Source of the DNA: Candidatus Auribacterota bacterium
GTDB taxonomy: Bacteria > Auribacterota > Tritonobacteria > UBA1439
Direction of reading: 5' to 3'
DNA: 64,000 nt
Assembly (NCBI GenBank): GCA_026392015.1
Contig: JAPLCW010000172.1
Coordinates: forward strand, 6,320 to 70,319
Shown here: one piece after another, positions 919 through 34,754 of the stretch
Position numbering within the stretch: position 1 is the first letter of the stretch
Layout of the letters: each line of letters opens with the position of its first letter
Position numbers and translations under genes: made by a program
The notes under the pieces: model-generated
What the model saw: only the letters and a program-made list of their open reading frames with translations
What the model was told of the DNA's origin: nothing
Database searches by the model: none

Positions 919-3051
919 GTGATTCTTCTTTTGATATTTGGTTCCGGCATGTTCCTCTTTGGTTACTCTCTCTCTTCTGCAATAACTCCCGCCATCCAAC
1001 GGCGAGACAGGCGCATCATCGCATTCCCCCTCGGGGCCGGTTGCTATACACTCGCCGTTTTCTGTCTGAATACGCAATTCAAAGTGCCCCTTCAACCATC
1101 TTCCCTCTGGTTGCTTCTGGGAATATGCGTCATTCTTTCCTGCGGTTGGGACATAGCCCGCAATGGCAGGAAATGTTATGAGGTGGCGGAAGCTCCCGTT
1201 GCACCACCGATACCTGTCTCAGCGCTTTGCGGATTTGAGCGCGTGCTTCTCGTTATTGTACTCGCGTTGCTCACAGCTACGGCTGTTCTGGTCCCTGCGG
1301 AGTATTGGGATGTGTATTCCGAATACCTGCCGAGGGCAAAGGAGATTTTTCTTGCTCGCGCTATTCCCCTTAACGCCTCACCCTCGCCCGTTGAACTCAT
1401 CCGGGCTTTTCCACCGGGGCACTGTCTTCTCATCGCCTCCGGCTATTGCATCGCGGGTTTCATCACACACCCCTGGGCCCGCATCCTGACGCCTCTTTAC
1501 GGATGCCTGCTCCTGGCGCTCCTCTACAGAATGGGCAGGCGCCATCTCGCGCTCCCCCAGGAAACAACCCTGGGCGGCCTCCTCCTCTGCACATCCCTGC
1601 CTATCTTCTATGAGGTGATGATCGTACCCACGGGGCTGACCCCCTTTTGCTTTTGTGCGGTCGCGTCACTCTATTTCTTCATGGAACGCAGAGAATCACA
1701 CGACATCGGTAGTATCGTACTCTCCGGCATCTTCTTGGGGCTTGCCTACTGGATATCGTACACCGGCACTGTACTCATTGCGTGCGTTGCGACGCTCCTG
1801 ATCTTACTGTCCGTCGCCGGCGCGTTCGGCAGACGGGTTTTCCCCTCCTGGCTCCGGCTGAAGCCCCGCGAATTTGTCCTGCTGTTTCTCCCCGCCCTCA
1901 TTATCGCAACCCCGCACATGCTTAGGAACTACTTCCTGCTCGGCAATCCTGTCTATCCCGCCCTGTATCGCTATTTCGGAGGTGCATGGATCGATAGTTG
2001 GTCCATTGCACACCTGATCCCCCGTGTGATTCCGGCCCATTCCTTTTTCTTGCGTCCGCGGTGGGAACTGTTTCACGAGGGATTCTTCATCCAACTCCTT
2101 TTCCTTCTCTTTCTCATCTCACGTTCATGGTATAAGGACGCGAAGAGCATCTTCCTCGCCTGTTTTTGTGTGCTCTACTGGCTGTTCTACATAAAATTCC
2201 TCACATGGCCCAGGGTCTCGGGCATATCCACAAAGCTGCTTCTCCCTTCGCTTGTTCCCATGAGCCTTTTCGCCGGAGAGCGGCTTAACCTTGTGCTTCG
2301 AAGGAAAATCCCGCTCTGGCAGGGAGTCATGATACTCGTTCTTGTCCCCCTCTGGACGTTCTTCATCTGGAGGGATGCCATGATATTTCCGGATATTCGC
2401 ACTCATCTTTCGCTTTCACATCCCAAAGACATAATTCATCTCGGGTGGGCATTGAGCGCGGATTTCGACAAAACTCTTCTCTGGATCAGCATTGCCCTGG
2501 GTCTGCTTTCGATCAGGATAATGGGAAGGACTCTGGGACCCCTGAGCGCAGCGCTGATTCTTCTCGCATTGGCATGCCGTCCGGTGGGCGAAAGCGCCCA
2601 TCAACTTGCCCTGCACCTCCAGGAATATGTTCATTCTACCTCCTACTCGTTCTGGAACGCGGCATTTCCCCCATCCTATTTTCCCGAGGCTGCATGGCTC
2701 GATAATAATCTTCCGCCCGATGCGGCGATCGGGAGCTTCGACAACCGCACCTATATTTACCCCAGGCGCGTATTTCCTCTCGACTCACCGCCGCTCTGGC
2801 CCATGTATAAGGGGATGGATATAGAAAATTGCATCGCGCTGCTCAAGAAGAATGGGATCACTCATTTATGTCTCTCGGACTACACGACAAAACCGCATCC
2901 CCTCTATGACATGTCGCCTATTTTTAACAATCTGGGCAACCCTGGCTATTTCCCCCTCCTCTATCGCGGACCGACGAGGGGGGAACCGGGTCATGAATTT
3001 AGCGTGTACGGAGTCGGGGAGCAAAAGGCGCTGTCTCCACCCACAGGCTGA
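919..3051 (+). CDS. large polytopic membrane protein, putative GT-C-fold glycosyltransferase with C-terminal soluble domain
   Basis: 710-aa ORF with more than 10 hydrophobic helices followed by a hydrophilic tail of about 130 aa. The start is uncertain: GTG at 919, first in-frame ATG at 949. Confidence 0.55.
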   Translation: MILLLIFGSGMFLFGYSLSSAITPAIQRRDRRIIAFPLGAGCYTLAVFCLNTQFKVPLQPSSLWLLLGICVILSCGWDIARNGRKCYEVAEAPVAPPIPVSALCGFERVLLVIVLALLTATAVLVPAEYWDVYSEYLPRAKEIFLARAIPLNASPSPVELIRAFPPGHCLLIASGYCIAGFITHPWARILTPLYGCLLLALLYRMGRRHLALPQETTLGGLLLCTSLPIFYEVMIVPTGLTPFCFCAVASLYFFMERRESHDIGSIVLSGIFLGLAYWISYTGTVLIACVATLLILLSVAGAFGRRVFPSWLRLKPREFVLLFLPALIIATPHMLRNYFLLGNPVYPALYRYFGGAWIDSWSIAHLIPRVIPAHSFFLRPRWELFHEGFFIQLLFLLFLISRSWYKDAKSIFLACFCVLYWLFYIKFLTWPRVSGISTKLLLPSLVPMSLFAGERLNLVLRRKIPLWQGVMILVLVPLWTFFIWRDAMIFPDIRTHLSLSHPKDIIHLGWALSADFDKTLLWISIALGLLSIRIMGRTLGPLSAALILLALACRPVGESAHQLALHLQEYVHSTSYSFWNAAFPPSYFPEAAWLDNNLPPDAAIGSFDNRTYIYPRRVFPLDSPPLWPMYKGMDIENCIALLKKNGITHLCLSDYTTKPHPLYDMSPIFNNLGNPGYFPLLYRGPTRGEPGHEFSVYGVGEQKALSPPTG

Positions 3052-4926: not shown

Positions 4927-7017
4927 CTACTTCCACTCGTGCCCGGACGACCATGCCGGCCAGTAGGCGGAAAAGGCCGGATATACCAGTGGCTCCCGCA
5001 AAAGATATATAAGGCACCCGGTTCCCAGGAGAAGGAGGAGCAGAAGAAGGCAGCGGTAGCACCGTCTATCCGCGGACACCGTTATTCCAGTCGCCGAACA
5101 TCTCGCGGCAAACTGCGAAATATTCCGACATGCGGCAATTGCGAGCGGCATAACCATGGGGGGAAGGTAGTACACCTTGATTAATCGTGTGGCCGCCACA
5201 AGAGGCAAATATAATACGGAAAAAATGATCAGTGTCTTCGATACCCTGTCCGGTTTGAGGAAGGCGGGGAAGATCAAAAAACATGAGGTGATGACAGCCC
5301 ATTCCGCAAGCGTGCCCGCATTCAGCACATACGAGCGGAAGCTCAACCCGGAAAATCGGAACCGCCACGTTTCGTCATAGAGATGCGCCTTCCACAAGGG
5401 GAGAGATCCAAGAATGCTTCCGAACCAGAACACGGCGCTCCAGTAGATTCCATAGATGACGCCCAGGATCAGCAACAGACCGAGCGGCCTTCTCCACTCT
5501 TTCGAGACGATGCTCCATGATGCATACGCGAACATAAGCATCTGGAACCCGTTCAGCCTTGTGAGCATCAGCATTGCGGCCACCGCAATGGCCTCCGGCT
5601 TTCTGTCGCACTCCAGCCAATAGATCGACAACAACAGGATCAGTGTGAAAAAGTGGTCTTCCGCAGAAACAAACAGGTGAAAATTGACGATATTGATCGT
5701 GCTGGCGACGATCGGAAAAAGCAACATGGCACCAGGGAAAATACCCGCATTCTCATTCCGGTATCGATACAATAGAAACATGCACAGACTCAAAAGAAAT
5801 CCCTTGGCGAGCCCCGCTGTTCTCATCGCTCCATACCCGTCGCCGGAGAATGGCGTGGATGCGATCATATTGACCCATACGCTCATGGGAGGGATGGTCA
5901 CGGTATACCCTGGACGCCTGTCAATCAACCCTGACATATACGGGAACAGAAGTCGCCGCATATATATCGGGGGATCCACGATATCCAGAATGTCGTACAA
6001 TGCACCCACCTCGCAAAAGAGCCAGCGCTCCTCTGCCCGGGAGAAGAACGCCGTCCGATTCAACCCGGAATAATTCTCCACGACGAGCGGCAGCTCAGGC
6101 GTTGCCGATGGTGAGATACGCATGCGTACTGTTGTCTCGCCCGGTGGGATATGGCACATTCGCTGCCATATATAACGGTTGTAATTCTTCACCCAGAAAT
6201 CCGGCCGCGCATCCGGTGTCGGGCTGAAGAGGGTACCTTGTTCAGGTGCGCCATCGCCGATTTGGACCGTAACTGTCGCGGGATCGTGCCCGCTGAAAAA
6301 AAATCGAAGATGCGCATCGAGCGCGGTTCCCCGCTCGTTTTTCACCCGGAAGATCGCCTCTTCTCCCGACAGAAGCCAGCGCCCCTTACCCAAAGGCCGC
6401 GCTCCCTCCCGCGCATACACGGCTATGGGGGATATCGGAGAATCATTCCCGGAGAACTCCCAGCTATGCAGCTCCTGAGAAATGGGAATCGGATTAATCC
6501 AGTTCCCCGCAGCGACCCAGTAGCGGTCTATACCCCACGAAAAATATTTTGGGAACAGGAGTGGAAAGGCCAATTGAATTATAAAGCACAACACGAGATA
6601 ACGAAGCCATGGAATCCCTCCAACTGCCGCGCCATTCCTCGCTCTTCCCCAAAAAAAGGCGGGGCAGATCCCGACGCACATTATGCCCCAGAGCCATGCC
6701 GGGGTCATTGCCACTCCCACTGCTTTCAGCAGGCTGGTAACCAGAATCCAACCCCAGACGTTCCACACAAAGCCGGCGAACAGGGTTTCCCCGAAATTCC
6801 CCCTCGGCGCAAAACGCTCCTGCCACGCGAAGGCCGGGTAGAGAAGAAAGACAAGCATCCCCGCCATTCTGCCGGCCTCGGTGAGCACGAGCGAGAGCAG
6901 ACCGCCCCCTCCGCTTCCCGCCAGTAATTGCGCAATTGCGAGGGATCCCCCGCATAAAGCGAGCAGCGCAAGGAGCAACGTAAGGGCAAAGGAATGCGTA
7001 TCAAGTCTCCCCTTCAT
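4927..7017 (-). CDS. large polytopic membrane protein with central soluble domain (function unknown, possible GT-C)
   Basis: The long ORF was trimmed to the ATG at 7017 (MKGRLDTHSFALTLLLALL...) to remove overlap with the upstream methyltransferase; ATG at 7047 is an alternative. Many hydrophobic helices lie on either side of a hydrophilic segment of about 250 aa. Confidence 0.5.
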   Translation of the reverse strand: MKGRLDTHSFALTLLLALLALCGGSLAIAQLLAGSGGGGLLSLVLTEAGRMAGMLVFLLYPAFAWQERFAPRGNFGETLFAGFVWNVWGWILVTSLLKAVGVAMTPAWLWGIMCVGICPAFFWGRARNGAAVGGIPWLRYLVLCFIIQLAFPLLFPKYFSWGIDRYWVAAGNWINPIPISQELHSWEFSGNDSPISPIAVYAREGARPLGKGRWLLSGEEAIFRVKNERGTALDAHLRFFFSGHDPATVTVQIGDGAPEQGTLFSPTPDARPDFWVKNYNRYIWQRMCHIPPGETTVRMRISPSATPELPLVVENYSGLNRTAFFSRAEERWLFCEVGALYDILDIVDPPIYMRRLLFPYMSGLIDRRPGYTVTIPPMSVWVNMIASTPFSGDGYGAMRTAGLAKGFLLSLCMFLLYRYRNENAGIFPGAMLLFPIVASTINIVNFHLFVSAEDHFFTLILLLSIYWLECDRKPEAIAVAAMLMLTRLNGFQMLMFAYASWSIVSKEWRRPLGLLLILGVIYGIYWSAVFWFGSILGSLPLWKAHLYDETWRFRFSGLSFRSYVLNAGTLAEWAVITSCFLIFPAFLKPDRVSKTLIIFSVLYLPLVAATRLIKVYYLPPMVMPLAIAACRNISQFAARCSATGITVSADRRCYRCLLLLLLLLGTGCLIYLLREPLVYPAFSAYWPAWSSGHEWK

Positions 7018-7090
7018 ATTCTTGCCACTCCAATTTCCACCCGGCATGCCGTCACCAGTCGACTCAAGAGGTCCTCTTCGCCATGGCCGC

Positions 7091-7882
7091 CTATAATCGT
7101 TTTCCCAAACAAAGTATGCAAGTCCCAAAAGGCATGAGCATCCTGCGGTCCATCTCCAGAATAAACGAAACGATGGTTGAGAGAAAAGGCCTCGATCTCT
7201 GGTCCCCGCCGGTTGCGGCAAGCGGATATTGTTTCCGAAGCATGCGGCTGTAGATAAGACAGGCGGGAATAGTGGAAAAACCGAAGTATCTCAGCGTGCG
7301 TATGGCGACAAATCCCCTTAGTTTTTCTCGCAACTGCTTCCGGGTATAACGCCTGTAGTGCCCGATCAGCCGGTCGTGGTGTCCAAACAGCCAGGGGCCC
7401 GCCGGCACGGTCACGACAACTATCCCTCCGGGGGCGACAAAGCTGCAAATCTTCTCGGTGACTGTAGTATCGTCTTCAACATGTTCCAGAACATCCGTTG
7501 CGACCACGCAATCGTACGGAGAGTCCGCCCTGAACGACTCGATGGAGGAAACCTGGAAAGAACATCGCGAAAGCCATTGCGAGGCCCCCTGGCTATGCAA
7601 CTCCTCCACCCTCTTCATGACCTCACGGTGGCATTCCTCCGATATATCAATCCCCGTCACGGTATGGCCTTCCGCCGCAAGGAGAAAGGAAAGAATGCCG
7701 GATCCAAAGCCGGCGTTAAGGATCCTGAGGGGCTTGTAGGGTGCGAGCCAATCCAGAATCAACTGGTATTTGGCGCGCTCATAGAGATCCCGGGGGCCGG
7801 ATTTGACCTGTTCGTACAAATCTGCAATCCGGCAAAACCTCTTCAAAATCCTTGTCTGGTACTCAGGCGTCAAAATGGGCAT
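7091..7882 (-). CDS. class I SAM-dependent methyltransferase
   Basis: Motifs LRILNAGFGSGILSFLLAAEGHTVTGIDISEE, DCVVATDVLEHVEDD and PGGIVVVTVP. Confidence 0.8.
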   Translation of the reverse strand: MPILTPEYQTRILKRFCRIADLYEQVKSGPRDLYERAKYQLILDWLAPYKPLRILNAGFGSGILSFLLAAEGHTVTGIDISEECHREVMKRVEELHSQGASQWLSRCSFQVSSIESFRADSPYDCVVATDVLEHVEDDTTVTEKICSFVAPGGIVVVTVPAGPWLFGHHDRLIGHYRRYTRKQLREKLRGFVAIRTLRYFGFSTIPACLIYSRMLRKQYPLAATGGDQRSRPFLSTIVSFILEMDRRMLMPFGTCILCLGKRL

Positions 7883-8191: not shown

Positions 8192-9259
8192 ATGAAAAAA
8201 GAACCTAGTGCAATAACACCGAAGCTGGTTGCGGATCAGGCCCTGCGGATTTCCGTTATCATCCCGGCATTCAATGCGGAGAACGATATCGCGGATTGCG
8301 TAAAACTGCTTCTCGACTCCGACTATAAGAATTTTGAGATTCTTATAGTCGACGACTGCTCGTGCGACAGAACAGCGGAGCGGGTGCGTGATCTCCCATG
8401 CAAGATCCTGAAAACCAATCATCGCTCAGGACCCGCGGGGGCGCGTGAAATGGGGATACGCAATGCAAAAGGGGAAATGCTGGTTTTTATCGACTCTGAT
8501 ATTCTTGTGCAAAAAAACACCCTAAGAAGGCTTCTCGAGTCTTTTTGTGAGAAGCCCGGCGTAGCCTCGGTAAGCGGAGATTATGCTACAAATGGAACCT
8601 GCCATAATCTATGCAGTCTGTATCAAAAAACCTATAACGAGTATAAGAGAATTTTCCTGCCGCCCTGCGGCCCCTATATTAATACTTCAATATATTGTAT
8701 CCCCCGCGAAATAATGCAATCCATAGGCGGATTCCGTTCGGATATATACACCGGCGAGGATTATGAGCTGGGATTGCGGTTGGCCGGAAAGGGATATATC
8801 AACTATTTCAACAGATCGATACGGGTGACGCACAATAAGCGCGTCACCCTCGCGCAATTGATCAGGCAGAAGTTCCAGTACGCAACGAATGTGACGATGC
8901 TCAAATTGGAGTTCGAAAGGACCGGCCATGATCACCGGATAGACCTGAAGCAAACTTTTTCAGTAGCCATAGATCAGATAATCGCCGCTGCGCTCCCCTG
9001 GCCCCTTATAATCGCAGGCTGCGCATCTCTCCTTTTCCCTATGCCCCTGTTCAGATGGCTGGCCCTTGGACTATTACTGGGCTACTGTGCGTCGAGCATG
9101 AGATACTGGTTATTTCTCTTCAAATCCACAGGCATTACCGCCGTCCTTTTCATCCCGATTTCGTTTCTGGAACACGCCATTTCCGGATTATCGGTCATTA
9201 TCGGCGTGATTCGTTTCTGGCTGCACCTCCCCTACTGGAAATTTAAAGGAATCCCATGA
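8192..9259 (+). CDS. family 2 glycosyltransferase with C-terminal transmembrane helices
   Basis: ISVIIPAFNAENDI...FEILIVDDCSCDRT...FIDSDILV (GT-A DxD region) with hydrophobic C-terminal helices. The track start at 8117 is TTG; the first in-frame ATG is 8192. Confidence 0.8.
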   Translation: MKKEPSAITPKLVADQALRISVIIPAFNAENDIADCVKLLLDSDYKNFEILIVDDCSCDRTAERVRDLPCKILKTNHRSGPAGAREMGIRNAKGEMLVFIDSDILVQKNTLRRLLESFCEKPGVASVSGDYATNGTCHNLCSLYQKTYNEYKRIFLPPCGPYINTSIYCIPREIMQSIGGFRSDIYTGEDYELGLRLAGKGYINYFNRSIRVTHNKRVTLAQLIRQKFQYATNVTMLKLEFERTGHDHRIDLKQTFSVAIDQIIAAALPWPLIIAGCASLLFPMPLFRWLALGLLLGYCASSMRYWLFLFKSTGITAVLFIPISFLEHAISGLSVIIGVIRFWLHLPYWKFKGIP

Positions 9260-10356
9260 ACCCTATTGATATCTCCCGCCTCGCATGGAGGACTGCGACA
9301 AAACGCTATCCCGAGCAGGTGACCTTCTTCGTGACCTCTCGCTGCAATTTCCGGTGCAAAATGTGCTTCTATGTGAAAGAGGCTTCCGCGCACGAACTCA
9401 CCCTTGCGGAATACGAGCGGATCGCGAAGCAGATGCCGAATTTCCATTGGATGCTGATCTCCGGCGGCGAACCGTTCTTGCGGGATGAGTTGCCCCAGAT
9501 ATGTCGCACCTTTGTAGAAAATAACCGCGTGAGAAAAATCAACCTCCCCACAAACGCCTATTTCCCGGAGCGCATTGTTCCCATGGTAAAGGAAATACTG
9601 GAAATCCGTCCTGACTGTTTTCTTAACCTTGGCCTATCCCTTCATGCCCCGGGCAAGAAGCATGATGAAATCACCGGCGTCCCGGGGAGTTTTGAACGAG
9701 TGATGCAGACGCACCAGGCGCTCCAACCGTTAAGAAGGCAATTTAAAAACCTTGGCCTCAGCATTGTCATTGTGCACTGTAGCTATACGGAATCCGACAT
9801 GAAGGAGCTCATCAGGTTCATTTTCGATGAGATGGACATTGATGATATCTGCATCGCGCTGGCCCGCGGCACGCCGAGGATGGCCGGGAGTATGTCGTTC
9901 TCACCGGACCTATACGCCCAGAATTGCCTCTTCCTCCACAACCTCATTCACGCGCACAGGGAATACTATTTCAATCTACCCTTCAAGGGGTTGTTCGTCT
10001 CGAAGGATATCGTATTGAGGGATGTTATCTTTCAAACCCTCAGGCAACGATCGTTTCAGATCCCCTGCTATGCCGGAAGAATAAGCGCCGTGATTGACGA
10101 GACAGGTAATCTCTATGCCTGTGAGTTGCGCAGCGAAAAAATAGGAAACCTCAGGGACGCCGGATACCGGTTTAAAACTCTCTGGGAAGGAACAGCCCGC
10201 AAAGAGCTCCTTCACGATATACGCGCGAATCGGTGTTTTTGCACACATGAGTGCACCAATACGACCAACATTCTTTTCAACCCGCGCCTGTATGGCCGCC
10301 TCTCATCGACATGGCTGAGGCTCCACACAAAAGGATGGGGGCTGAGAAGGCGCTAG
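9256..10356 (+). CDS. radical SAM protein with SPASM/twitch-like C-terminal Cys cluster
   Basis: VTSRCNFRCKMC (CxxxCxxC), GGEPFL, and C-terminal CYAGR..LYACE..CFCTHEC. The ATG overlaps the upstream stop as ATGA (9256-9259). Confidence 0.8.
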   Translation: MNPIDISRLAWRTATKRYPEQVTFFVTSRCNFRCKMCFYVKEASAHELTLAEYERIAKQMPNFHWMLISGGEPFLRDELPQICRTFVENNRVRKINLPTNAYFPERIVPMVKEILEIRPDCFLNLGLSLHAPGKKHDEITGVPGSFERVMQTHQALQPLRRQFKNLGLSIVIVHCSYTESDMKELIRFIFDEMDIDDICIALARGTPRMAGSMSFSPDLYAQNCLFLHNLIHAHREYYFNLPFKGLFVSKDIVLRDVIFQTLRQRSFQIPCYAGRISAVIDETGNLYACELRSEKIGNLRDAGYRFKTLWEGTARKELLHDIRANRCFCTHECTNTTNILFNPRLYGRLSSTWLRLHTKGWGLRRR

Positions 10357-10502
10357 TCTGGATTGTTCAGCAGGCGAATAAAAGAGCGATTTTAACAGTC
10401 TACCCTATGTAACCGCAGATTGGGCAGATTACACAATGCGAATCCGCGTAATCAGCGTAATCCGCGGTTAAAACATTAAAAGTTGGTGAATAGACCAGGC
10501 TA
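10354..10502. mobile_element. MITE family 2 (TA-flanked palindromic element)
   Basis: Ends are TA-GTCTGGATTGTTCAGCAG ... GGTGAATAGACCAGGC-TA. The interior hairpin is aaccgcagattgggcagatt / aatccgcgtaatcagcgtaatccgcggtt. The terminal TAG and CTA are the stop codons of the two convergent genes. Confidence 0.8.
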
Positions 10503-11240
10503 GGATTCGGGAGCGCGATATCTTCCCAGAATATTATTGATCCTGATGCCAAGTAAGCTGAACGGATCGGTCAGAAGACACTTCAGGATGTTTATGCTGC
10601 TGCCCGCGCAGTGGCTCCATGCCACGGGGATCTGTTTGATTTTGTAACCAAATTTTCTCGCGAGAAAAATCAACTCAACGTCAAACATGCCGCCCCGTAT
10701 TCTTATCGCACTGAAGAGTTTGTGTGCGGGCTCCCTCTTTATGCATTTGAATCCGCACTGTGTATCGGGGGGGGATCTTAAAATCAGCGTCCGCACACAC
10801 AAACCCCCCATATGGCCGACAATCCTCCTGTACAAAGGCTGATCCCTCCTGATGCGTGATTCTTCAAGATACCTGTCTCCGATAGCCAAATCCGCGCCAC
10901 CCTCACATGTTTCGATAAACTTCGGGAGCTCCTCGATCGGGACAGCCAAATCGGCATCAGTGAAGAGAATGAGCGCCCCCTTCGCCTCAAGCATGCCGTG
11001 GCAAACCGTATACCCCTTCCCCCTATTTCTGTCATTGCGCAACAGCCTGATGCACGGAATCCGCTTCGCATATTCCTCCACGAGGGAAACAGTGCCGTCA
11101 CTGCTCCCATCGTCAACCGCCACTATCTCGTACTCATACGTGCTCCCCTTCATAAACGCGACGATTCGGTCGATCGCGCTTCCTATCCTCTTCTCCTCGT
11201 TATATGCAGGGATGACAATGCTGAGATATATGTCGCTCAT
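10500..11240 (-). CDS. family 2 glycosyltransferase, polyprenyl-phosphate glucosyl/mannosyl-transferase-like (Alg5/GtrB-like)
   Basis: Trimmed to the ATG at 11240 (MSDIYLSIVIPAYNEEKRIG), which overlaps the upstream stop as ATGA. Motifs VAVDDGSSDGT, RNRGKGYTV and ILFTDADLA. Confidence 0.8.
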   Translation of the reverse strand: MSDIYLSIVIPAYNEEKRIGSAIDRIVAFMKGSTYEYEIVAVDDGSSDGTVSLVEEYAKRIPCIRLLRNDRNRGKGYTVCHGMLEAKGALILFTDADLAVPIEELPKFIETCEGGADLAIGDRYLEESRIRRDQPLYRRIVGHMGGLCVRTLILRSPPDTQCGFKCIKREPAHKLFSAIRIRGGMFDVELIFLARKFGYKIKQIPVAWSHCAGSSINILKCLLTDPFSLLGIRINNILGRYRAPES

Positions 11241-12361
11241 GTGTGCCCCCGAATGTCCCGTCCGGCTCGCCGCGATGATTTCCCGCGCGCAAAGTAGTCC
11301 CGGGCGAATAATCTGAAAAAGGTTTTGAATCTCTCCATGATCATCGCGTTCGAATGCACGATGTCCGAAGACTCCCTCCAGCACCCGTAGAAGCATCCTT
11401 CACAGGAAGCATGGAGCGCCTTTAGTTTTTCCCGATACTCGGCGCTTCTATACTGAGCGGCGAAATCGCCCGTCAATGCGTTGCCGATGGGGTAGAGCTC
11501 GTCGCAGGGATAAACGGAGCCGTCGGGAAAAACCGAAAAGTAGAGAACACCTGCCTCGCATTCCGGCCACCTCTTCTCGCCCGTGATGAGAAAACGGGCG
11601 GACTCCCGAAGGAATTTTTCGGAATGGCCTATCCGGCAACCTTCCCCTTTCATCCTGACCAGCTCATCGAAAATTCTGCCTATCAGTCCGGCGTCATCCG
11701 GGGAAAATGCCAGTTCCCTGTCAAACCTCTGCAACAGCATGTCCCCCGCCCCCGCCGACGGCATGTTAATCGGGGATGGGTTCGACCAGACCTTCATTGC
11801 ATCGAGAGTCCGGACAATTTCGGGAATCTCACCGATGTTCCGCCTGCTGACGACGATATTGGCGTTTATCATGCTCTTCGGCATTTTTTGAACCGCCATC
11901 CCGAGCACCCTCATGGTGCTCTCCAGAACTCCCTTAAAATTGCAGATATCGTCCTGAAGCTCCGGGTTGAGGGTATCGAGCGACACCGTCAGATCCATTT
12001 TGCCGCGGGAGGCGGCAATGACTTTATCCAGGGCTTCCTCGCTCACCTGCGGGCCCGCGTTCGTCTGTATCCGTATGAGGAAGCCCGCCCTGTCGAGCAT
12101 GGACACTATCTCCGGGAGATCCCTGCGAAGGAACGGCTCCCCGCCGGTGAGAACAACATAGCGCACACCGGTCCTCCGTACCTCGTCGACGACGCGCGCT
12201 ATCTGCTCCAGCCCCATTTCGCTGCGAGGGTCGGCATACTTCCATACGTTGCACATTCTGCACTGCATATTGCATCTGCGCGTGACGTAGAAGCGGAAGA
12301 AGAACGGCGCGCCGAAATATTTAGAGGCGATGATCGCCTTTGATATCTTCCACAGCTTCAT
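11237..12361 (-). CDS. radical SAM protein with SPASM/twitch-like C-terminal Cys cluster
   Basis: Trimmed to the ATG at 12361 (MKLWKIS), preceded by GAGGGGGA. Motifs VTRRCNMQCRMC, LTGGEPFL, CEAGV..VYPCD and CEGCFYGC. Confidence 0.8.
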   Translation of the reverse strand: MKLWKISKAIIASKYFGAPFFFRFYVTRRCNMQCRMCNVWKYADPRSEMGLEQIARVVDEVRRTGVRYVVLTGGEPFLRRDLPEIVSMLDRAGFLIRIQTNAGPQVSEEALDKVIAASRGKMDLTVSLDTLNPELQDDICNFKGVLESTMRVLGMAVQKMPKSMINANIVVSRRNIGEIPEIVRTLDAMKVWSNPSPINMPSAGAGDMLLQRFDRELAFSPDDAGLIGRIFDELVRMKGEGCRIGHSEKFLRESARFLITGEKRWPECEAGVLYFSVFPDGSVYPCDELYPIGNALTGDFAAQYRSAEYREKLKALHASCEGCFYGCWRESSDIVHSNAMIMERFKTFFRLFARDYFARGKSSRRAGRDIRGHT

Positions 12362-12381: not shown

Positions 12382-14367
12382 TCACCACTCCAAAAGGGAA
12401 AAGGGCTGTCGTATAACACCCAGATCCCTTCCCGCCAGACAATGCGCACGGACTTCTTCAGGCAGTGTTTCCATGCGCCTGACAAGGTCATCTCCTCGAT
12501 CCACCGCGTCGAGCCTCCACCGGGCTCCCACACCCTCGCAAAACGGCCCGCGGGCACTCTCGGGAAGATGTTCCAAGGTGCCCGTCACCCAATCAACGGT
12601 TGCCCCATGCCTCGACGCCTCAATATCTCCGACACCCTGCCATGCCCACCGCGCCGATCCGTTATCGAGCACGCCGGCCAACTCCCCAATCTTTTCAAAC
12701 TGAGAGCCGTGTGACCAGGAGAGGCCCCTTCCAAGCCCCCGGTAAAGAATAGGACGGTATCCTTTTTCGACGTTCCCGTCTGCGAAAGCCTTGAATGTTG
12801 CCACATCCCCAATAGCGATCTGACCGCCGCCGGCGACAAGGTTTGCTTCCGGCCGATCGGCGATCGGGATGTACCAGCACATATCAGTGATGTACCCGAT
12901 CAGATCATCCCTGTCCTGCCGGTCGCGGACTTTCTCCGCAAGAGCGAGGGCATTATTGAGACCGCCTTGAGAATAAACCCCATGCCCCATCCGTGCTCCC
13001 AAGTAGCCGTAATCATAGCCTTCAGTTCGCAGAGAAGCGCCCGGATCCCAGTTCTCAAAAAAAGGGAGGTTTCCGAGCAACAGCAAGGCGAAGAGAATAG
13101 TCGCTGCTGACCACGCAGCATATCTCATGGCCTTTATGCGGCACAGGCTCAGGCGATCGAAGCAGATAGCGAGCGATAACAAGTAGAAAGGCATAAGAGG
13201 CATCAGGTAGCGATAGGGATAGCAATCTGCTCTTACAATACCTATATTGCTAAAGCACGTAACCAGAATGCAAAAGACAAAAAAACCAAATACTATACCC
13301 CCATTTCGTCTCACCAAGTCCGGGAAAAGAGGGACAGGAGATCTTGCCCTTGCGATTTCCCTATTCGATGACCTTCGAATTGAAAAAATAAAAGATGCCA
13401 GCCCCACGAGCACTAAAAACTCATATGTGCAGCCCAGCATACCACTCAATAAACCCGGAGGAGCAAAAGGACCTAACCATGAGTTCGTCCACCAATGAAA
13501 GATCATACTGATGATCCTCCCTATAAAACGGACGGAGCTGCTCATTACCCATTCTGGTACGGAGTGGGCAGTGGAGAAATAAGATTTCCCCACTGGAGAT
13601 CCCCAGCCAAATACTTTGAGTGAATTAAAGCCATAAATCAGATTATAGGCAATCCAGGGCGCCAATCCCATCAAAAACCCTGTAAGAAGCGCAACAATCC
13701 TGCGTGCGGAATTGGGAATACGGTAAAACGTAAGGACAAAGAAAGCATATGCAGCGATTATGTAGAAATAGACAGAGAGATATATCCCGAAACCCAGTAT
13801 TATGCCAAGGATAGTTAGAACAAGGACAAACGATTTCCACTCATTAAACGGGATATTCGTAGCACATTTTACATTAATCAACCCGATGAGAAGGAGAAGC
13901 ACCACCGCATGTATGATGTCTGCAAAAACCCACTTTGCACATAACCAGAGCGACCAATAGAGGAGGCCCGGAGGCAGCAACACTGCCACCGCAATATACC
14001 ACAAGCCTGCCCTTCTTCCGAAAATTCTTGATACCAAGATAGCCCAAAGAAGTAATGCGGTGAAGCTACAAACAAATGCAACTAACTTAAGCGCCGCGTA
14101 GGAATATCCTACAAGAATAAATGCTACACTCGTGAGCATACCGACTATAATAGAAGCGCCTTCCACCACATCTGTTTGGTATTCGAACATGCTAAGGATC
14201 GGCCCTTTAAGGAATTCTTTGCCCATCATGCCACCGTAGCGTTCACATGGGTCAAGGTGGCTTGGCCAGAATGAGAAAGCGACCCAGAAACGCACCAGGA
14301 GAAAGGCGCCCCCTAAAGCTATCGCTGCCGCCCAGAACTTCCGATTCGGAATTGCGCTCTCTTCCAT
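12382..14367 (-). CDS. large polytopic membrane protein, putative GT-C-fold glycosyltransferase with C-terminal soluble domain
   Basis: 661 aa. About 430 aa of densely packed hydrophobic helices are followed by a hydrophilic domain of about 220 aa. It is the first large gene of a tight operon with the rSAM and GT2 genes downstream. Confidence 0.55.
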   Translation of the reverse strand: MEESAIPNRKFWAAAIALGGAFLLVRFWVAFSFWPSHLDPCERYGGMMGKEFLKGPILSMFEYQTDVVEGASIIVGMLTSVAFILVGYSYAALKLVAFVCSFTALLLWAILVSRIFGRRAGLWYIAVAVLLPPGLLYWSLWLCAKWVFADIIHAVVLLLLIGLINVKCATNIPFNEWKSFVLVLTILGIILGFGIYLSVYFYIIAAYAFFVLTFYRIPNSARRIVALLTGFLMGLAPWIAYNLIYGFNSLKVFGWGSPVGKSYFSTAHSVPEWVMSSSVRFIGRIISMIFHWWTNSWLGPFAPPGLLSGMLGCTYEFLVLVGLASFIFSIRRSSNREIARARSPVPLFPDLVRRNGGIVFGFFVFCILVTCFSNIGIVRADCYPYRYLMPLMPFYLLSLAICFDRLSLCRIKAMRYAAWSAATILFALLLLGNLPFFENWDPGASLRTEGYDYGYLGARMGHGVYSQGGLNNALALAEKVRDRQDRDDLIGYITDMCWYIPIADRPEANLVAGGGQIAIGDVATFKAFADGNVEKGYRPILYRGLGRGLSWSHGSQFEKIGELAGVLDNGSARWAWQGVGDIEASRHGATVDWVTGTLEHLPESARGPFCEGVGARWRLDAVDRGDDLVRRMETLPEEVRAHCLAGRDLGVIRQPFSLLEW

Positions 14368-14380: not shown

Positions 14381-14959
14381 TTATGCTCTTCTCATTTTTC
14401 CACCAATCTTTTTCAGATAGGCCAGACCGCATCTGCTACATTTGGATCTTCCATTTTTTAGTTTTAGCTTTGCACCGCACTCGCACGCCCATCCCATGAG
14501 CCGGGCGGGATTCCCATACACCAGAGCATACTCAGGGACATCGGATGTCACCACGGCGCCCGCACCAATGAACGCATGGCGCCCGATCGTCAAACCGCAG
14601 AGTATCGTCGCGTTGGCGCCGATCGTCGCCCCCTCTCTTACCAGTGTGGGAAGATGATCGGTCTCCGGATTTTTCGCATACGCGGAGCGGGGATCCGGAT
14701 CGTTGGTGAAAACCACGGACGGACCGCAGAACACATAATCCTCGAGCGTGATCTTTTCATAGACCGAGACATTATTCTGGATCTTCACGCCGTTGCCGAT
14801 CACCACTCCCTTGCCTATGTACACATTCTGACCGATATTGCAGTTCTTCCCGATCCTCGCTCCTTCCCTCACGTGGCAGAAGTACCAGACGGTCGTCCCC
14901 TCCCCTATTCTCACATTCTTTTCCACATACGAAGATTCGTGAACATAGTATTTTCTCAT
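14381..14959 (-). CDS. left-handed beta-helix (hexapeptide-repeat) sugar N-acetyltransferase, WbpD/WlbB-like
   Basis: Trimmed to the ATG at 14959, preceded by GGAGGA. Repeated [LIV]G-x4 hexapeptides (VRIGEGTTV, ARIGKNCNIGQNVYIGKGVVIGNGVKIQNNVSV) and the end motif YGNPARL. Confidence 0.75.
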   Translation of the reverse strand: MRKYYVHESSYVEKNVRIGEGTTVWYFCHVREGARIGKNCNIGQNVYIGKGVVIGNGVKIQNNVSVYEKITLEDYVFCGPSVVFTNDPDPRSAYAKNPETDHLPTLVREGATIGANATILCGLTIGRHAFIGAGAVVTSDVPEYALVYGNPARLMGWACECGAKLKLKNGRSKCSRCGLAYLKKIGGKMRRA

Positions 14960-15042
14960 TATTCCTCCATGCCTCACGTCGCTCCTACGGAGCCGGCGAC
15001 ACATTGCTCCGCTAATGTGTCAATTTCGGGGGAGATTGAGTT

Positions 15043-16081: not shown

Positions 16082-17119
16082 ATGGATTCTCCCGAGACGA
16101 GTAAGGTTGTCACATGTGCCATCATAGGCTGCGGCTGGTGGGGACCGCGGCTTATCAGGACGTTCCATCGGCTGCCGGGCGCCCGGGTAAAGACCGTTGC
16201 AGACCTAAAAGAAGAACGTCTGAATCTTATCACCGAAACGTACCCCGAAATCGCGGTTACCCGCGATTATACGCAAATACTTCTCGACCCCGAGATTGAC
16301 GCGGTATGTGTGGCGACGCCGACCGAATCGCACTATGCGATCGCGAGGGATGTTCTCAACGCGGGCAAGCACCTCCTCCTCGAAAAACCCATGACGGTCA
16401 GCCGCCGTGAATCGGCAGCTTTGCAGCAATCGGCCCTGGAGAAGCGCCTCACGCTGCTCGTCGACCATATTTTTCTCTACGACCCCGCGGTTGCCTTTTT
16501 AAAGCAGTGCATCGGCGCCGGCGAGATGGGGAACTTATATTACGTCGATTCCGCAAGGATCAACCTCCCGCCCCCTGATGCCACAGTCAATGTGCTGTGG
16601 GATCTTGCCCCTCATGATATTTCCATCTGCCTCCACCTTTTCGGGGAACTCCCTCAGTGCGTTGCCGCGCAGGGCATGCGCTACCGCCACACGCAGCTGG
16701 AGGACGCCGCTTCCCTCTACCTCTATTTCCCGGGCGGGAAGCTCGCCCGCATTCATGTGAGCTGGCTCAGCTCCTGCAAGACTCGCGTGATGCGCATATT
16801 CGGCTCGGAAAAATCGGCATTCTACGATGGCGGATCCCCGAAAGACAGGGTGCAGATTTTCGGCCCGGGCAAAGACACCAGACTCGCTCCGGGAGGCGCC
16901 ACTCCCCTGCAGCACTCCTATGGACCCGATACCGTCACCATCCCCCCTCTCCCGGACACAGAGCCTCTCTACGCCGAAGGCCTCGACTTCCTGGAATGCG
17001 TGTCGACGGGGAAGGAACCGGTCAGCTCAGGGCGCACCGGTCACCTGGTGGTCTCCATACTGGAAGCAGCCAGTGTGTCGATGAAGCGGATGGGCGGGAT
17101 GGTCAAAGTACGCACCTAG
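16082..17119 (+). CDS. Gfo/Idh/MocA-family NAD(P)-dependent sugar oxidoreductase (WbpB-like)
   Basis: Rossmann motif CAIIGCGWWGP and VATPTESHYAIARDVLNAGKHLLLEKPM. AAGAGG ribosome-binding site upstream of the ATG. Confidence 0.8.
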   Translation: MDSPETSKVVTCAIIGCGWWGPRLIRTFHRLPGARVKTVADLKEERLNLITETYPEIAVTRDYTQILLDPEIDAVCVATPTESHYAIARDVLNAGKHLLLEKPMTVSRRESAALQQSALEKRLTLLVDHIFLYDPAVAFLKQCIGAGEMGNLYYVDSARINLPPPDATVNVLWDLAPHDISICLHLFGELPQCVAAQGMRYRHTQLEDAASLYLYFPGGKLARIHVSWLSSCKTRVMRIFGSEKSAFYDGGSPKDRVQIFGPGKDTRLAPGGATPLQHSYGPDTVTIPPLPDTEPLYAEGLDFLECVSTGKEPVSSGRTGHLVVSILEAASVSMKRMGGMVKVRT

Positions 17120-17256
17120 TCTGGATTATTCATTAGAGGCATAATTTTAATGGATTAAAGTATGAAACCGCGGATTAGGCGGATTAGAAATAAGAATCCG
17201 CATAATCAGCATAATCCGCGGTTAAAACATTAATAGTTGATGAATAAATCAGACTA
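17117..17256. mobile_element. MITE family 2, inserted exactly between a stop codon and the next start codon
   Basis: TA-GTCTGGATTATTCAT ... GATGAATAAATCAGAC-TA. The first TAG is the stop of the oxidoreductase gene. The element ends 1 nt before the ATG at 17257. Confidence 0.85.
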
Positions 17257-19263
17257 ATGACCACACGACGTGAAAAACTGATTCTCCTGGCCGTTTTTAT
17301 TATCGCATGCGGGGTCCGTGTGCTCTACCATATGGACGAGCTGCGCCTGCCGCCGCAGCACCCCGATGGCTACTACTACCATCGGCTCGCCGAGAACGTC
17401 CTCCGCGGACGGGGCTATGCGATCCTATGGCCCACCGGCCACGAGTATCGCCTGTTCCGCCCTCCGGGATACCCGCTCTTCCTCGCCGCCGTTTACTCCG
17501 TGGCCGGGTTTACCCCCCTTGCAGTCCGGCTTGCGGAAATAGCCATTTCCTCCTTTACCGTCATTCTCCTCTTCTTCATCACCGCGCGCGTCTTTGGGAA
17601 ACGCGCCGCATGGACTGCGACAGTTCTGTCCGCATTCTATTGGCCCTCCATTCTCTGGTCGGCAGACTACCGAGCTGAAAACCTTTTCGTGTTTTTCTTT
17701 ATGCTGTCCATCTATTATCTGGCAGCGCCGGGCCGAAGGCCTGCTCACTTATCTGTCTCGCTCGGGGCGTTCTTTCTAGCGCTGGCATACCTCGTTCGCC
17801 CGAATAGCATCATTCTCTTCCCTCTCTGCATTCTATGGCTCTTCTTTTATCTTAAGGCATCTCCCGCCCGGCGTGCGATCACTGCCTCGCTATTTATCAT
17901 AGTTGCCGCAATCACGATTTCTCCCTGGATATACTATAACGTCCATATACGGCAGCTCGGTTTCAGAAATTCGATGGAAACCACCATGGGGGCCATGAAC
18001 GTATGGACGGCGCACAATCCCACCTTTATCGATGAGGTCGACAACAAGGGACTCGAGCAGATAAATATGCTGCGCTACAAGAATTCCAGGATCAGCGAGA
18101 GCGAATGGCTCGAACTCCTCAGACGCGAGTCCGGCAGCTTTCTCAGGTCCGATCCGCTCGCTCGCGCCAGGACATCGGTCAAGAGGTTCAAAAAACACTG
18201 GCTGGCTGCCGGCGTCATGGATGGCGAGGGGACGCTTTATCCTGACACCGGCAAGAATCAGTACGGCATACTCTACTTTTACAGGCGATTCTGGAAACCG
18301 GAGGCGTATATCCGCGATAATGTCATGGTGTCCATGGATTTCAAAAAGAGAATCTCTTTCTACGGCCTCAGGATCCCTCTCCTTACCTTCGAAGGGATAT
18401 TCAACATATGTGTCATCGGTTTTGTCGCGGGGCTGATCGCGGCACGGGGCAAAATCTTCATACTGCTTGCGGATGTGTGGCGGAGAAGTTCGCTCCTCAT
18501 CATTCTTGCTGCCGGCTACTCGCTTTTCAGCATGGTGGGATTCGCGCACTATCGATTGCGATACCCCCTGGAATGGATTGTGCTTATCTTCGCCGGGTGG
18601 GGAATCGGGAATATCCTCGCCCTCCTGCGAAGGAATCCATCCTCCGCACACGACGAGTATCCGCTGCCGCGCTGCGGCTATATTCTGGCCTTTCTTCCCC
18701 TCAGTTTACTATTCTTCTCCCTCTCGATCTCCTTTGCCGCGCGCACGCAGAGCCGGAAGATCGCGGCGATCTGCAATGCGCCTCCCCAGGAGGAGCAGGC
18801 GCTTTCTGACTTCTCCGTGCGCTACCCCGATCTATCGAAGAAACTGAACCGGGATATCAGTTACCACCAGGCATGGCAGTATCAGATGGAGCACGGCGGA
18901 GAGGTGGATCACTATCGCGGCACGGTTGTCTGCTGGACCGGCGAGGCATCTTTCCTTCGGGAACTTCCCCTGGATCAGCTCGTCAATGAACCCGCCGCCT
19001 ATCGCGATGCATGGAAACCCGCTCCTGCGGACGCGAGATCTCCCCTCCTCATACGGCTGGTCATCGGCTCTTACGCACAGCCGGGAGGATTGGGAGAAGG
19101 AGAGGTCCTGATTATCTGTGACAAGCACGCGGCGTCTCAGATACGGGAGGGGGATCCGGTGACTGTCTTAGCCGAAATAACGGGATCGGATCGATTCACC
19201 ATGGGATATATCATAGCCTTCGGCCATGCGTTCTACCGCTGGAGCATCCCGGGCGATATTTAA
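17257..19263 (+). CDS. ArnT/PMT-like (GT39/GT83-type) GT-C glycosyltransferase with C-terminal soluble domain
   Basis: The N-terminus (ILLAVFIIACGVRVLYHM...DGYYYHRLAENVLRGRGY...FRPPGYPLFLAAVY) is typical of this family. It has many helices and a soluble tail of about 170 aa. Confidence 0.7.
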   Translation: MTTRREKLILLAVFIIACGVRVLYHMDELRLPPQHPDGYYYHRLAENVLRGRGYAILWPTGHEYRLFRPPGYPLFLAAVYSVAGFTPLAVRLAEIAISSFTVILLFFITARVFGKRAAWTATVLSAFYWPSILWSADYRAENLFVFFFMLSIYYLAAPGRRPAHLSVSLGAFFLALAYLVRPNSIILFPLCILWLFFYLKASPARRAITASLFIIVAAITISPWIYYNVHIRQLGFRNSMETTMGAMNVWTAHNPTFIDEVDNKGLEQINMLRYKNSRISESEWLELLRRESGSFLRSDPLARARTSVKRFKKHWLAAGVMDGEGTLYPDTGKNQYGILYFYRRFWKPEAYIRDNVMVSMDFKKRISFYGLRIPLLTFEGIFNICVIGFVAGLIAARGKIFILLADVWRRSSLLIILAAGYSLFSMVGFAHYRLRYPLEWIVLIFAGWGIGNILALLRRNPSSAHDEYPLPRCGYILAFLPLSLLFFSLSISFAARTQSRKIAAICNAPPQEEQALSDFSVRYPDLSKKLNRDISYHQAWQYQMEHGGEVDHYRGTVVCWTGEASFLRELPLDQLVNEPAAYRDAWKPAPADARSPLLIRLVIGSYAQPGGLGEGEVLIICDKHAASQIREGDPVTVLAEITGSDRFTMGYIIAFGHAFYRWSIPGDI

Positions 19264-19585
19264 TCTGCCTTATTCAGCAGGGATAAAAAAGAATTTTTAT
19301 AACAGATAAGGGCATGCAACCGCGGATTATGCGGATTGCGCGGATTACGCAAGGCGAGTTAGTGTGGGGTCCTGTAAATAGCCTACAAAATCGTGTCATT
19401 GCGAGGAGCGAAGCGACGAAGCAATCCGTTATCCAGTAAACCGAGATTGCTTCGCTTCGCTCGCAATGACATTATATTAGTAACGAAATTTCTGAGTCAC
19501 GACTCTAGTAAAGCTTTACCCAAATGCATATAGAATCCGCGTAATCCGCGGTTAAAACATCTAAATTGATGATCGGATCAGCTTA
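19261..19585. mobile_element. MITE family 2 copy carrying a nested family 4 palindrome
   Basis: Ends are TA-ATCTGCCTTATTCAGCAG ... GATGATCGGATCAGCT-TA. The TAA and TTA termini are the stop codons of the two convergent genes. The interior is split by an insert of about 170 nt. Confidence 0.75.
19394..19471. repeat. palindromic repeat family 4
   Basis: tgtcattgcgaggagcgaagcgacgaagcaatc...gattgcttcgcttcgctcgcaatgaca. A second copy lies at 57207-57291 and a half copy near 62255-62285. Confidence 0.8.
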
Positions 19586-20622: not shown

Positions 20623-20775
20623 TGCTGATCTATTCATCAACTATTAACGTCTTAACCGCGGATTACGCTGATTACGCGGATTATTGTGTGTAATCCGCCT
20701 AATCCGCAAAATCCGCGGTTTCATACTCTAATCTATTTGAATTGCTCTTTTATGCTCCTGCTGAATGACCCATGC
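20623..20775. mobile_element. MITE family 2 (inverted orientation)
   Basis: TA-TGCTGATCTATTCATCAAC ... CTGCTGAATGACCCATGC-TA, with interior hairpin aaccgcggattacgctgattacgcggatt / aatccgcctaatccgcaaaatccgcggtt. The right TA is part of the stop codon at 20775-20777. Confidence 0.75.
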
Positions 20776-26380: not shown

Positions 26381-26400
26381 AGTCACACTAAGAGCACTTT

Positions 26401-34729: not shown

Positions 34730-34754
34730 CCGGCGCGGGAGCAGACGGGGACAA

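Follow-up and report, generated by a model that had tools for sequence, protein, structure and literature searches.

The 64,000-nt stretch of DNA analysed here (the window) comes from an assembly of Candidatus Auribacterota bacterium (GCA_026392015.1, contig JAPLCW010000172.1, positions 6,320 to 70,319 of the forward strand), and all positions below are counted from its first letter. Between positions 8192 and 12361, the table of open reading frames (ORFs) and the raw sequence place two convergent operons, each consisting of a gene for a family-2 glycosyltransferase (GT2) and a gene for a radical SAM (S-adenosylmethionine) enzyme (rSAM); Table 1 lists these genes and their surroundings. On the plus strand, the end of GT2_1 (stop at 9259) overlaps the start of rSAM_1 in an ATGA at 9256-9259. 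On the minus strand, the rSAM_2 stop and the GT2_2 start share an ATGA at 11237-11240 (TCAT on the plus strand). Both overlaps and the ORF coordinates agree with an earlier reading of the sequence by eye and ORF list (the original prediction), which had taken the overlaps as a sign of stoichiometric coupling. However, 5 of the 32 same-strand neighbour pairs in the window share 4-nt overlaps, so that an overlap here denotes operon membership and is not proof of such coupling. The rSAMs belong to a clade that is linked genomically, often by gene fusion, to glycosyltransferases and not to peptides.

Radical SAM enzymes of the SPASM/twitch group have mostly been studied as peptide maturases or as tailoring enzymes of antibiotic sugars. 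Both translations contain the N-terminal CX3CX2C motif (SRCNFRCKMC in rSAM_1, RRCNMQCRMC in rSAM_2) and the C-terminal cysteine motifs noticed earlier (CYAGR..YACE..CFCTHEC and CEAGV..YPCD..CEGCFYGC, respectively). Hidden Markov model (HMM) searches, which had been proposed as a check, score the Pfam domains Radical_SAM (4.2e-15 for rSAM_1, 1.9e-22 for rSAM_2), Fer4_12 and SPASM in both proteins, with SPASM above its cut-off of 21.5 bits in rSAM_2 (25.3 bits) and below it in rSAM_1 (19.7 bits). Among 34 homologues of rSAM_1, the invariant cysteines are C30/C34/C37, a hairpin pair C271-X12-G-X4-C289, and C327-X-C329-X3-C333; among 41 homologues of rSAM_2, the conserved set is C30/C34/C37, C268-X12-G-X4-C286 and C320-X2-C323. 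The CX3CX2C motif for the SAM cluster is invariant or nearly so in both families. The seven-cysteine SPASM motif (CX9-15GX4C, CX2CX5CX3C and a final C) is absent, as there are only five conserved C-terminal cysteines in rSAM_1 and four in rSAM_2. Since the CX12GX4C hairpin is accompanied by only two or three further conserved cysteines, both proteins are classed by their motifs as twitch-like enzymes with one predicted auxiliary cluster, and not as two-cluster SPASM proteins; of the earlier assignment to the SPASM/twitch type, the group and its twitch half thus stand. The AlphaFold2 (AF2) models (mean confidence score, pLDDT, 93.8 for rSAM_1 and 91.3 for rSAM_2) contain short strands at about residues 274-298 followed by helices.

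In a BLASTP comparison, the two rSAMs share 28% identity over the N-terminal 150 residues only. Aligning their family profiles with hhalign extends the similarity over the full length (337 columns, probability 99.95%, E 7e-38), which identifies them, at the level of sequence profiles, as distant paralogues with one architecture in one uncharacterised clade. Because the paralogy is full-length, the two modules are not independent inventions, and the idea that GT2-rSAM coupling arose here twice is dropped; the convergent pair also occurs in a relative of 90% identity. Placing the clade next to characterised enzymes is less successful. Foldseek matches both models to SkfB, BlsE, SuiB, anSME, DesII, MoaA and viperin at TM-scores of about 0.6, with CteB also among the top matches. 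Among PDB sequences, rSAM_2 is matched best by BlsE, a sugar-nucleoside decarboxylase (1.4e-8; 1.5e-21 by profile), and BtrN is matched by the rSAM_2 profile at 5e-4 and not by the rSAM_1 profile. The profile searches against PDB sequences align the radical SAM core only, and as similarity is limited to this generic core, neither protein can be placed in a characterised family and their chemistry cannot be assigned in this way. We therefore rejected PDB sequence, profile and Foldseek placement as a route to the reaction. The oxidation or epimerisation that had been suggested after BtrN and anSME was pure inference, as structure and sequence searches put neither protein near these enzymes. Among NCBIfam models, HpnH and MftC match the rSAMs weakly (MftC 40.2 and 65.1 bits against a cut-off of 265), while the ArsS and anSME models are absent among the 25 best matches listed for either protein. 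For GT2_1, rSAM_1, GT2_2 and rSAM_2 alike, every NCBIfam model stays below its cut-off.

The rSAM_1 family is large: it counts 2,748 representatives at 50% identity (E<=1e-30), and a word-indexed search returned 697 clusters at E<=1e-10. To describe its gene context, we used 80 loci from a scan of GTDB species representatives with a 12-sequence alignment (loci are cited by our L numbers). A same-strand GT2 gene lies directly beside the rSAM_1 homologue in 45 of the 80 by single-query tblastn and in 53 by a locus-derived HMM, so that the adjacency, for rSAM_1, is conserved well outside this genome, as the original prediction had required. It holds in the closest loci with enough flanking sequence (L005-L017), whose hosts are Actinomycetes, Gaiellales, Beta- and Gammaproteobacteria, Nitrospirota, Rokubacteria, Chloroflexota and one archaeon; overall, GT2-adjacent loci span Actinomycetota, Nitrospirota, Proteobacteria, Chloroflexota, Planctomycetota and archaea. 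Contexts with curated Pfam annotation (L085-L088) agree. In three of these (L085, L087, L088), independently called genes with precomputed Pfam domains reproduce the same GT2-to-rSAM overlap, and L085 holds a second such pair. PMT_2 genes adjoin the pair in L087, L088 and L008, and nucleotide-sugar genes flank it in L085, L087 and L033. Loci that lack a GT2 neighbour still carry a GT4 glycosyltransferase, a carbohydrate esterase family 4 (CE4) deacetylase or a GT21-like GT2. No consistent third partner of the family was found in the examined contexts. Only 9 of 84 loci have another twitch rSAM in the flanking sequence, with weak rSAM_2 scores, and the dual module of the window was rejected as an obligate unit. 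In one locus, L031 (5707-9059), a CE4 deacetylase, a GT4 and an rSAM_1 homologue form a string that recalls the HpnI/HpnK/HpnJ logic discussed below.

In several genomes, the pair is a single protein. An rSAM and a GT2 share one ORF, together with transmembrane (TM) helices, in Omnitrophota (L032, 700 aa), Rhodospirillaceae (L074, 715 aa), Elusimicrobiales (L040) and the locus L120. Among the 150 best-matching representatives of the family, no fewer than 13 are fusion-sized (558-743 aa). Pfam searches on ten of these long representatives found Glycos_transf_2 plus Radical_SAM in all ten, with GT2 preceding rSAM in nine and the reverse order in one. Fusion in both orders and in several phyla is the strongest evidence that both domains act on the same pathway intermediate, and fusion through TM helices argues for action at the membrane. 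A different fusion is present in the Elusimicrobiales metagenome-assembled genome (MAG) of L040, where a single 727-aa ORF (9062-11245) combines B12-binding, Radical_SAM and GT2 domains; it directly follows the GT2-twitch rSAM fusion and precedes another twitch rSAM.

A peptide substrate was searched for by clustering ORFs of 15-110 aa located between ~2.6 kb upstream and ~1.6 kb downstream of the rSAM in ~80 loci. No conserved small precursor ORF was found at the pairs in the window or in these loci, in line with the earlier remark that none lies near either gene: unfiltered clusters are frame or antisense shadows of genes, and once gene-overlapping ORFs are removed, the sole remaining family is an unrelated 90-aa protein in four Nitrospirota loci. 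The same search found no MftA- or MftB-like genes. Neither rSAM has a Pfam match to an N-terminal domain like RRE (the recognition element of RiPPs, peptides made on the ribosome and modified after translation) or PqqD, and the radical SAM core begins at about residue 20.

Both glycosyltransferases match Glycos_transf_2, and they appear to be of different kinds. GT2_1 (Glycos_transf_2 at 6.6e-29, with further matches to Glyco_tranf_2_3, Glyco_trans_2_3 and GT21) has a GT-A domain followed by 2-4 C-terminal TM helices (TM segments at residues 256-337). Among NCBIfam models, MftF ranks first for it (113.7 bits; cut-off 280), besides EpsD, PgaC and the ArsS-associated glycosyltransferase TIGR04283 (71.9 against 182); the HpnI model scores 23.5 bits against 310. 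Its best PDB matches are TarS/GalT1-type enzymes, ahead of DPMS and of the membrane GT2 6yv7, which we take to be the crenarchaeal PcManGT. The picture is the same among 16 GT2s partnered with rSAM_1 homologues, GT2_1 included: each of them has MftF and TIGR04283 as its best named models, and all are MftF/EpsD-like. The partner family conserves DxD, ED and R-K-S-x-Y-W (QxxRW-like) motifs. In GT2 enzymes, ED and QxxRW-like motifs are typical of hydroxyl acceptors, and their conservation thus indicates a hydroxyl acceptor for the GT2_1 type. By sequence, then, GT2_1 is classed as MftF-like and not as a polyprenyl-phosphate type. GT2_2 lacks TM segments, and phmmer against the PDB ranks DPMS (5mlz, 4.9e-23), ArnC (2e-14) and GtrB (1e-11) at the top, with ArnC also the top NCBIfam match (1.1e-19); it is probably a polyprenyl-phosphate sugar synthase of the DPMS/ArnC/GtrB class. 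The proposal that both GT2s act on polyprenyl phosphate therefore survives for GT2_2 only.

The rSAM_2 family is smaller (160 clusters at E<=1e-10) and keeps different company. Of 12 contexts, 8 have a gene for a GT-C-type glycosyltransferase (GT-C) beside or close to rSAM_2, and 4 have a GT2; the more constant partner of rSAM_2 is thus a PMT_2-type GT-C and not, as had been proposed, a GT2. On two archaeal-type contigs (L001, L173), PMT_2, GT2, rSAM_2 and two B12-rSAM genes follow each other in that order. In L170 and L171, rSAM_2 is followed by PMT_2 (translationally coupled in L170) and then by a methyltransferase, and PMT_2 lies upstream of the rSAM_2 homologue in L089 and L090. These two loci are the only true members recovered with the pattern TGGEP[FL][LI]RxD, which proved too generic for finding rSAM_2 relatives in metagenomes. 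In a Vicinamibacterales MAG (L002/L003, 5968-13522), the rSAM_2 homologue and PMT_2 sit within a polyketide/acyl cluster with genes for a type III polyketide synthase, an ICMT methyltransferase, an acyl carrier protein, an AMP-ligase and a flavin monooxygenase, which may serve the glycosylation of an alkylresorcinol-type lipid. Three contexts (L004, L169, L172) are without a glycosylation neighbour of rSAM_2. L172 (3177-7026) carries a GT9-WbqC-PIG-L-rSAM_2 string, which again recalls the HpnI/HpnK/HpnJ logic. In the window, the first gene of the rSAM_2/GT2_2 operon encodes a polytopic protein and ends 20 nt before the rSAM_2 start, and the same minus-strand gene string is headed by the acetyltransferase gene. 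The position of the rSAM_2 module directly downstream of this polytopic gene is as originally described. Its identity as a GT-C rests on topology (~10 TM segments and then a soluble domain at the C-terminal end), a match to a locus-derived PMT_2 HMM (7e-11) and, over 484 aa, 22% identity with the protein encoded at 22954-24756, itself a weak PMT_2 paralogue; no Pfam match was found even at E<=10. In the 90%-identical relative (L174/L175), the order is acetyltransferase, rSAM_2, GT2_2, the convergent rSAM_1 and GT2_1, and then a methyltransferase.

The spacer between the convergent operons holds an imperfect 23-nt inverted repeat (83% complementary), which the original prediction had described as a miniature inverted-repeat transposable element (MITE) on which both modules converge. 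The convergence stands. The end motif of the repeat, GTAATCCGCGGTTA, has 10 copies in the window against 0.38 expected, located between the listed ORFs (element sites at 10457-10470, 17165-17224, 19317-19330, 19541-19554, 20653-20666, 33113-33260, 40682-40695 and 52036-52049) and often arranged as inverted pairs around 40-220 nt. The repeat is thus one copy of a dispersed extragenic palindromic element and not specific to this locus, and a MITE as part of the GT2-rSAM system was rejected, as the repeat is scattered through the intergenic regions of the window. It is probably also a bidirectional transcript end.

The pairs are located in a ~40-kb island that takes up the first 42 kb of the window and is rich in genes for GT-C, GT2 and HpnJ-like B12-rSAM proteins (Table 1). 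Its density of GT-C-type glycosyltransferases is unusual, with at least five PMT_2 proteins and one GT87. It also holds five GT2s, three methyltransferases and one FrhB-methyltransferase fusion. The acetyltransferase, the Gfo/Idh/MocA oxidoreductase and the DegT aminotransferase together suggest, by their family assignments, a pathway for a 2,3-diacetamido-sugar donor. HpnJ is the best NCBIfam model for three of the four B12-rSAMs, and the second after BchE for the one at 35501-36925; the four HpnJ scores, 82.7-226 bits, all stay below the cut-off of 577.6. The first of these B12-rSAMs (3-812) is truncated at the edge of the window, and a PMT_2 and two methyltransferase genes come after it. 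A third GT2-to-rSAM pair joined by an ATGA (35501-35504) leads from an ArnC/AglJ-like GT2 (34698-35504) into the B12-rSAM at 35501-36925, and the FrhB-like/methyltransferase fusion (29607-31586) leads in the same way into the B12-rSAM at 31583-33046 (ATGA at 31583-31586). No hopanoid genes were seen. The ClpB protein of the window has its nearest matches in Candidatus Aureabacteria (82%) and in a Chlamydiota MAG (79%), which makes an uncultured bacterium of the PVC group the probable host. Downstream of ClpB lie four very large minus-strand ORFs (773, 819, 1339 and 1106 aa; 46461-60754).

Table 1. Genes and features of the two operons and the surrounding island, in window positions
Feature	Position	Strand	Basis or remark
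GT2_1, membrane-anchored family-2 glycosyltransferase	8192..9259	+	ORF opens with TTG at 8117; likely start ATG 8192
rSAM_1, twitch-type radical SAM protein, 366 aa	9256..10356	+	Pfam, conserved Cys, AF2 model
Imperfect 23-nt inverted repeat, 83% complementary	10410-10432 / 10448-10470	.	convergent spacer
GT2_2, short soluble DPM1/ArnC-like GT2, 246 aa	10500..11240	-	PDB phmmer, NCBIfam
rSAM_2, twitch-type radical SAM protein, 374 aa	11237..12361	-	Pfam, conserved Cys, AF2 model; ATG 12361
Polytopic membrane protein, probable divergent GT-C (PMT_2/ArnT-like)	12382..14367	-	TM topology, locus-derived HMM
Hexapeptide-repeat sugar N-acetyltransferase (NeuD/PglB-like)	14381..15004	-	Pfam Hexapep 1.3e-23; NCBIfam NeuD_NnaD 5.7e-28
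Class I SAM methyltransferase, divergent from GT2_1	7091..7882	-	Pfam Methyltransf_23/25/11
B12-binding-domain radical SAM protein	3-812
PMT_2 protein	919-3051
Polytopic protein without assignment	4927-7221
Gfo/Idh/MocA oxidoreductase	16082-17119		UDP-GlcNAc 3-dehydrogenase model, 4.8e-41
PMT_2 protein	17257-19263
PMT_2 protein	20775-22940
PMT_2 protein	22954-24756
Polytopic protein without assignment	24740-26413
GT87	26401-27633
B12-binding-domain radical SAM protein	31583-33046
B12-binding-domain radical SAM protein	33326-34729
B12-binding-domain radical SAM protein	35501-36925
PMT_2 protein	37266-40178		fused to NHL beta-propeller repeats
DegT aminotransferase	40970-42214

From these contexts we favour, with modest confidence, a reading in which units of a GT2 and a twitch rSAM perform membrane-associated radical tailoring of a lipid-anchored sugar. 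The GT2 would move a sugar from a nucleotide-sugar to a membrane-anchored acceptor at the cytoplasmic face, which would be polyprenyl phosphate for GT2_2 and some lipid-linked hydroxyl for GT2_1. Its partner rSAM, predicted to carry the SAM cluster and one auxiliary [4Fe-4S] cluster, would be kept at the membrane by complex formation with the GT2 or by fusion through the GT2 TM helices. There, its 5'-deoxyadenosyl radical would abstract a hydrogen atom from the lipid-anchored sugar, after which the auxiliary cluster might take up an electron or a cysteine might return a hydrogen; the sugar would thereby become a keto, epimerised, deoxy or ring-contracted one. In module 2, flipping of the edited polyprenyl-phosphate sugar would follow, and the neighbouring GT-C would pass the sugar on to an acceptor outside the cytoplasm. 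As the lipid-linked sugar would be edited before GT-C transfer, the rSAM would add a fourth component, for sugar editing, to a glycosylation system of the GtrB/GT-C type, much as ArnD or DprE1/DprE2 edit lipid-linked sugars.

Several observations weigh against this reading. The type of reaction (oxidation, epimerisation, deoxygenation or ring contraction) is a guess drawn from genomic evidence only, and the top Foldseek neighbours mix peptide maturases (SkfB, SuiB) with sugar enzymes (BlsE, DesII). Neither gene order nor fusion reveals which of the two, GT2 or rSAM, acts first. For module 1, GT2_1-type partners are nearer to MftF/EpsD than to polyprenyl-phosphate glycosyltransferases, whose models match only 2 of the 16 partners; by our own HMM, moreover, a GT-C lies within 5 kb of the rSAM_1 homologue in only 11 of the 80 loci. 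For module 2, the polytopic gene is probably a divergent GT-C, judged by weak similarity and polytopic topology, and its counterpart is absent from L174/L175, where the acetyltransferase gene lies directly upstream of rSAM_2, indicating a recent insertion or deletion. A hydropathy scan of the window found no small multi-TM ORF for a GtrA-like flippase, which may lie elsewhere.

The scarcity of GT-C genes near most GT2-rSAM_1 pairs would fit a process that needs no GT-C at all, namely the remodelling of glycolipid head groups, similar to HpnI/HpnK/HpnJ or Cds. Here, GT2_1 would glycosylate a lipid hydroxyl (for example of a glycerolipid, hopanoid or ceramide-like lipid) and rSAM_1 would convert the hexose, for instance by ring contraction to a cyclitol. 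The Glyco_tranf_2_3/GT21 signatures and the ED and QxxRW-like motifs of GT2_1-type partners, as expected for hydroxyl acceptors, point in this direction, as do the CE4 deacetylase-GT4-rSAM_1 string of L031 and the PIG-L gene beside rSAM_2 in L172, both recalling a logic of glycosyltransferase, deacetylase and rSAM; Cds and HpnJ are genetic precedents (PMC13459092). Nevertheless, we regard this explanation as unlikely: the family is shared by Bacteria and Archaea, two groups with different membrane lipids, the HpnI score of GT2_1 is a small fraction of its cut-off, HpnJ is a B12-domain rSAM unlike rSAM_1 and rSAM_2, and PMT_2 does adjoin the pair in L088, L087 and L008. The rSAM might instead edit the soluble nucleotide-sugar donor, as BlsE, DesII and viperin do with nucleoside-linked substrates, after which the GT2 would transfer the edited sugar. 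The BlsE match of rSAM_2 and the presence of BlsE, DesII and viperin among the top Foldseek matches of both models speak for such donor editing. These matches, however, cover only the generic radical SAM core, the recurrent fusion through TM helices ties the rSAM to the membrane, an anchoring that a soluble substrate would not call for, and rSAM_2 is paired with GT-C genes even without an adjacent GT2, making this route rather improbable.

The order of the two enzymes could also be reversed, with the rSAM making the acceptor that an MftF-like GT2 then glycosylates, as MftC acts before MftF, or adding a 5'-deoxyadenosyl group to a lipid as HpnH and ArsS do. All 16 GT2 partners indeed match best to the models of MftF and the ArsS-associated TIGR04283, both of them GT2s that work with rSAM enzymes, and the rSAMs have weak matches to HpnH and MftC. 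We give this order only a slim chance, as every score is far below its family cut-off, MftA/MftB-like genes or small ORFs were not found, and an rSAM_1 family of this size has no consistent third partner. Least credible, with a very small chance indeed, is a peptide or protein maturase (of RiPP or anSME-like type) whose substrate gene lies elsewhere or was missed and whose modified peptide is glycosylated by the GT2. SkfB, SuiB, CteB and anSME are among the top Foldseek matches, and a sulfatase lies beside the pair in one locus (L034) of the seven with Pfam-scanned neighbours. Set against these are the lack of a conserved small ORF in the loci searched, the lack of an RRE/PqqD domain ahead of the radical SAM core, the motif for a single auxiliary cluster only, and neighbours that are overwhelmingly carbohydrate enzymes.

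Radical tailoring of a lipid-anchored sugar would build on known kinds of system. The sugar-acting twitch rSAMs (the dehydrogenases BtrN and SpeY, the epimerases NeoN, HygY and AviX12, and the decarboxylase BlsE, the best PDB match of rSAM_2) resemble the two proteins in having a radical SAM core, a C-terminal beta-hairpin CX12GX4C and a few further cysteines, enough for one auxiliary cluster, as well as a carbohydrate gene context without peptide substrate. In contrast to rSAM_1 and rSAM_2, which are coupled or fused to membrane GT2s and GT-C genes, they belong to antibiotic clusters and have soluble intermediates, aminoglycosides or nucleosides, as their substrates, and the likeness lies in the generic core only. 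For HpnJ, a role in contracting the sugar ring of hopanoid cyclitol ethers has been proposed. Module 2 further resembles the three-component systems of a GtrB/ArnC-type GT2, a flippase and a GT-C, with its DPMS/ArnC-like GT2_2 near a GT-C-like protein and many PMT_2 paralogues around it, and ArnD and DprE1/DprE2 share the idea of sugar editing on a lipid carrier. Here, however, the editor would be a radical SAM enzyme, no GtrA-like flippase is found in the window, and GT2_1 is not of the polyprenyl-phosphate type. Radical SAM enzymes go unmentioned in a survey of three-component GT-C systems (PMC11127046).

A similar biochemical logic is that of HpnI-HpnK-HpnJ (hopanoid cyclitol ether) and of the calditol synthase Cds, where a glycosyltransferase adds a hexose to a lipid and an rSAM remodels the lipid-bound sugar (PMC13459092). 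The four HpnJ-like B12-rSAMs of the island and the deacetylase-glycosyltransferase-rSAM strings in L031 and L172 are reminiscent of it; HpnJ differs from the twitch-type rSAM_1 and rSAM_2 by its B12-binding domain, the HpnI and HpnJ models stay far under their cut-offs, and the parallel with Cds is drawn from its described reaction. Mycofactocin biosynthesis (MftC/MftF) and arsenosugar biosynthesis (ArsS/TIGR04283) likewise partner an MftF-like GT2 genetically with a SPASM-group rSAM. They differ from the pairs in the scores given above, far under cut-off for MftF, MftC and TIGR04283, with ArsS outside the 25 best NCBIfam matches listed and MftA/MftB not found. A full-text literature search found no description of a cassette or fusion of GT2 and twitch rSAM (with or without GT-C), and no report of a radical SAM enzyme as editor in three-component glycosylation systems. 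The cassette would combine known kinds, sugar-tailoring twitch rSAMs and lipid-linked glycosylation systems, on genomic evidence.

More tentatively, as something possible rather than probable, we propose that these units form a widespread and unrecognised class in Bacteria and Archaea: membrane-tethered GT2 plus twitch rSAM units, often one bifunctional polypeptide, that would first assemble a lipid-anchored sugar and afterwards alter it by radical chemistry, perhaps by O2-independent oxidation or epimerisation like that of DprE1/DprE2 or by Cds-like carbocyclisation, as a fourth component of GT-C envelope glycosylation. If this is true, a family of thousands of proteins, tied to glycosyltransferases by operon, overlap and fusion, would extend radical chemistry to the lipid-linked sugars of the cell envelope. 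The natural GT2-rSAM fusions offer a single-protein system in which this is directly testable, and the same logic may hold for the HpnJ-like B12-rSAM-GT2 pairs and fusions. Such editing could account for unusual sugars of uncultured anaerobes.

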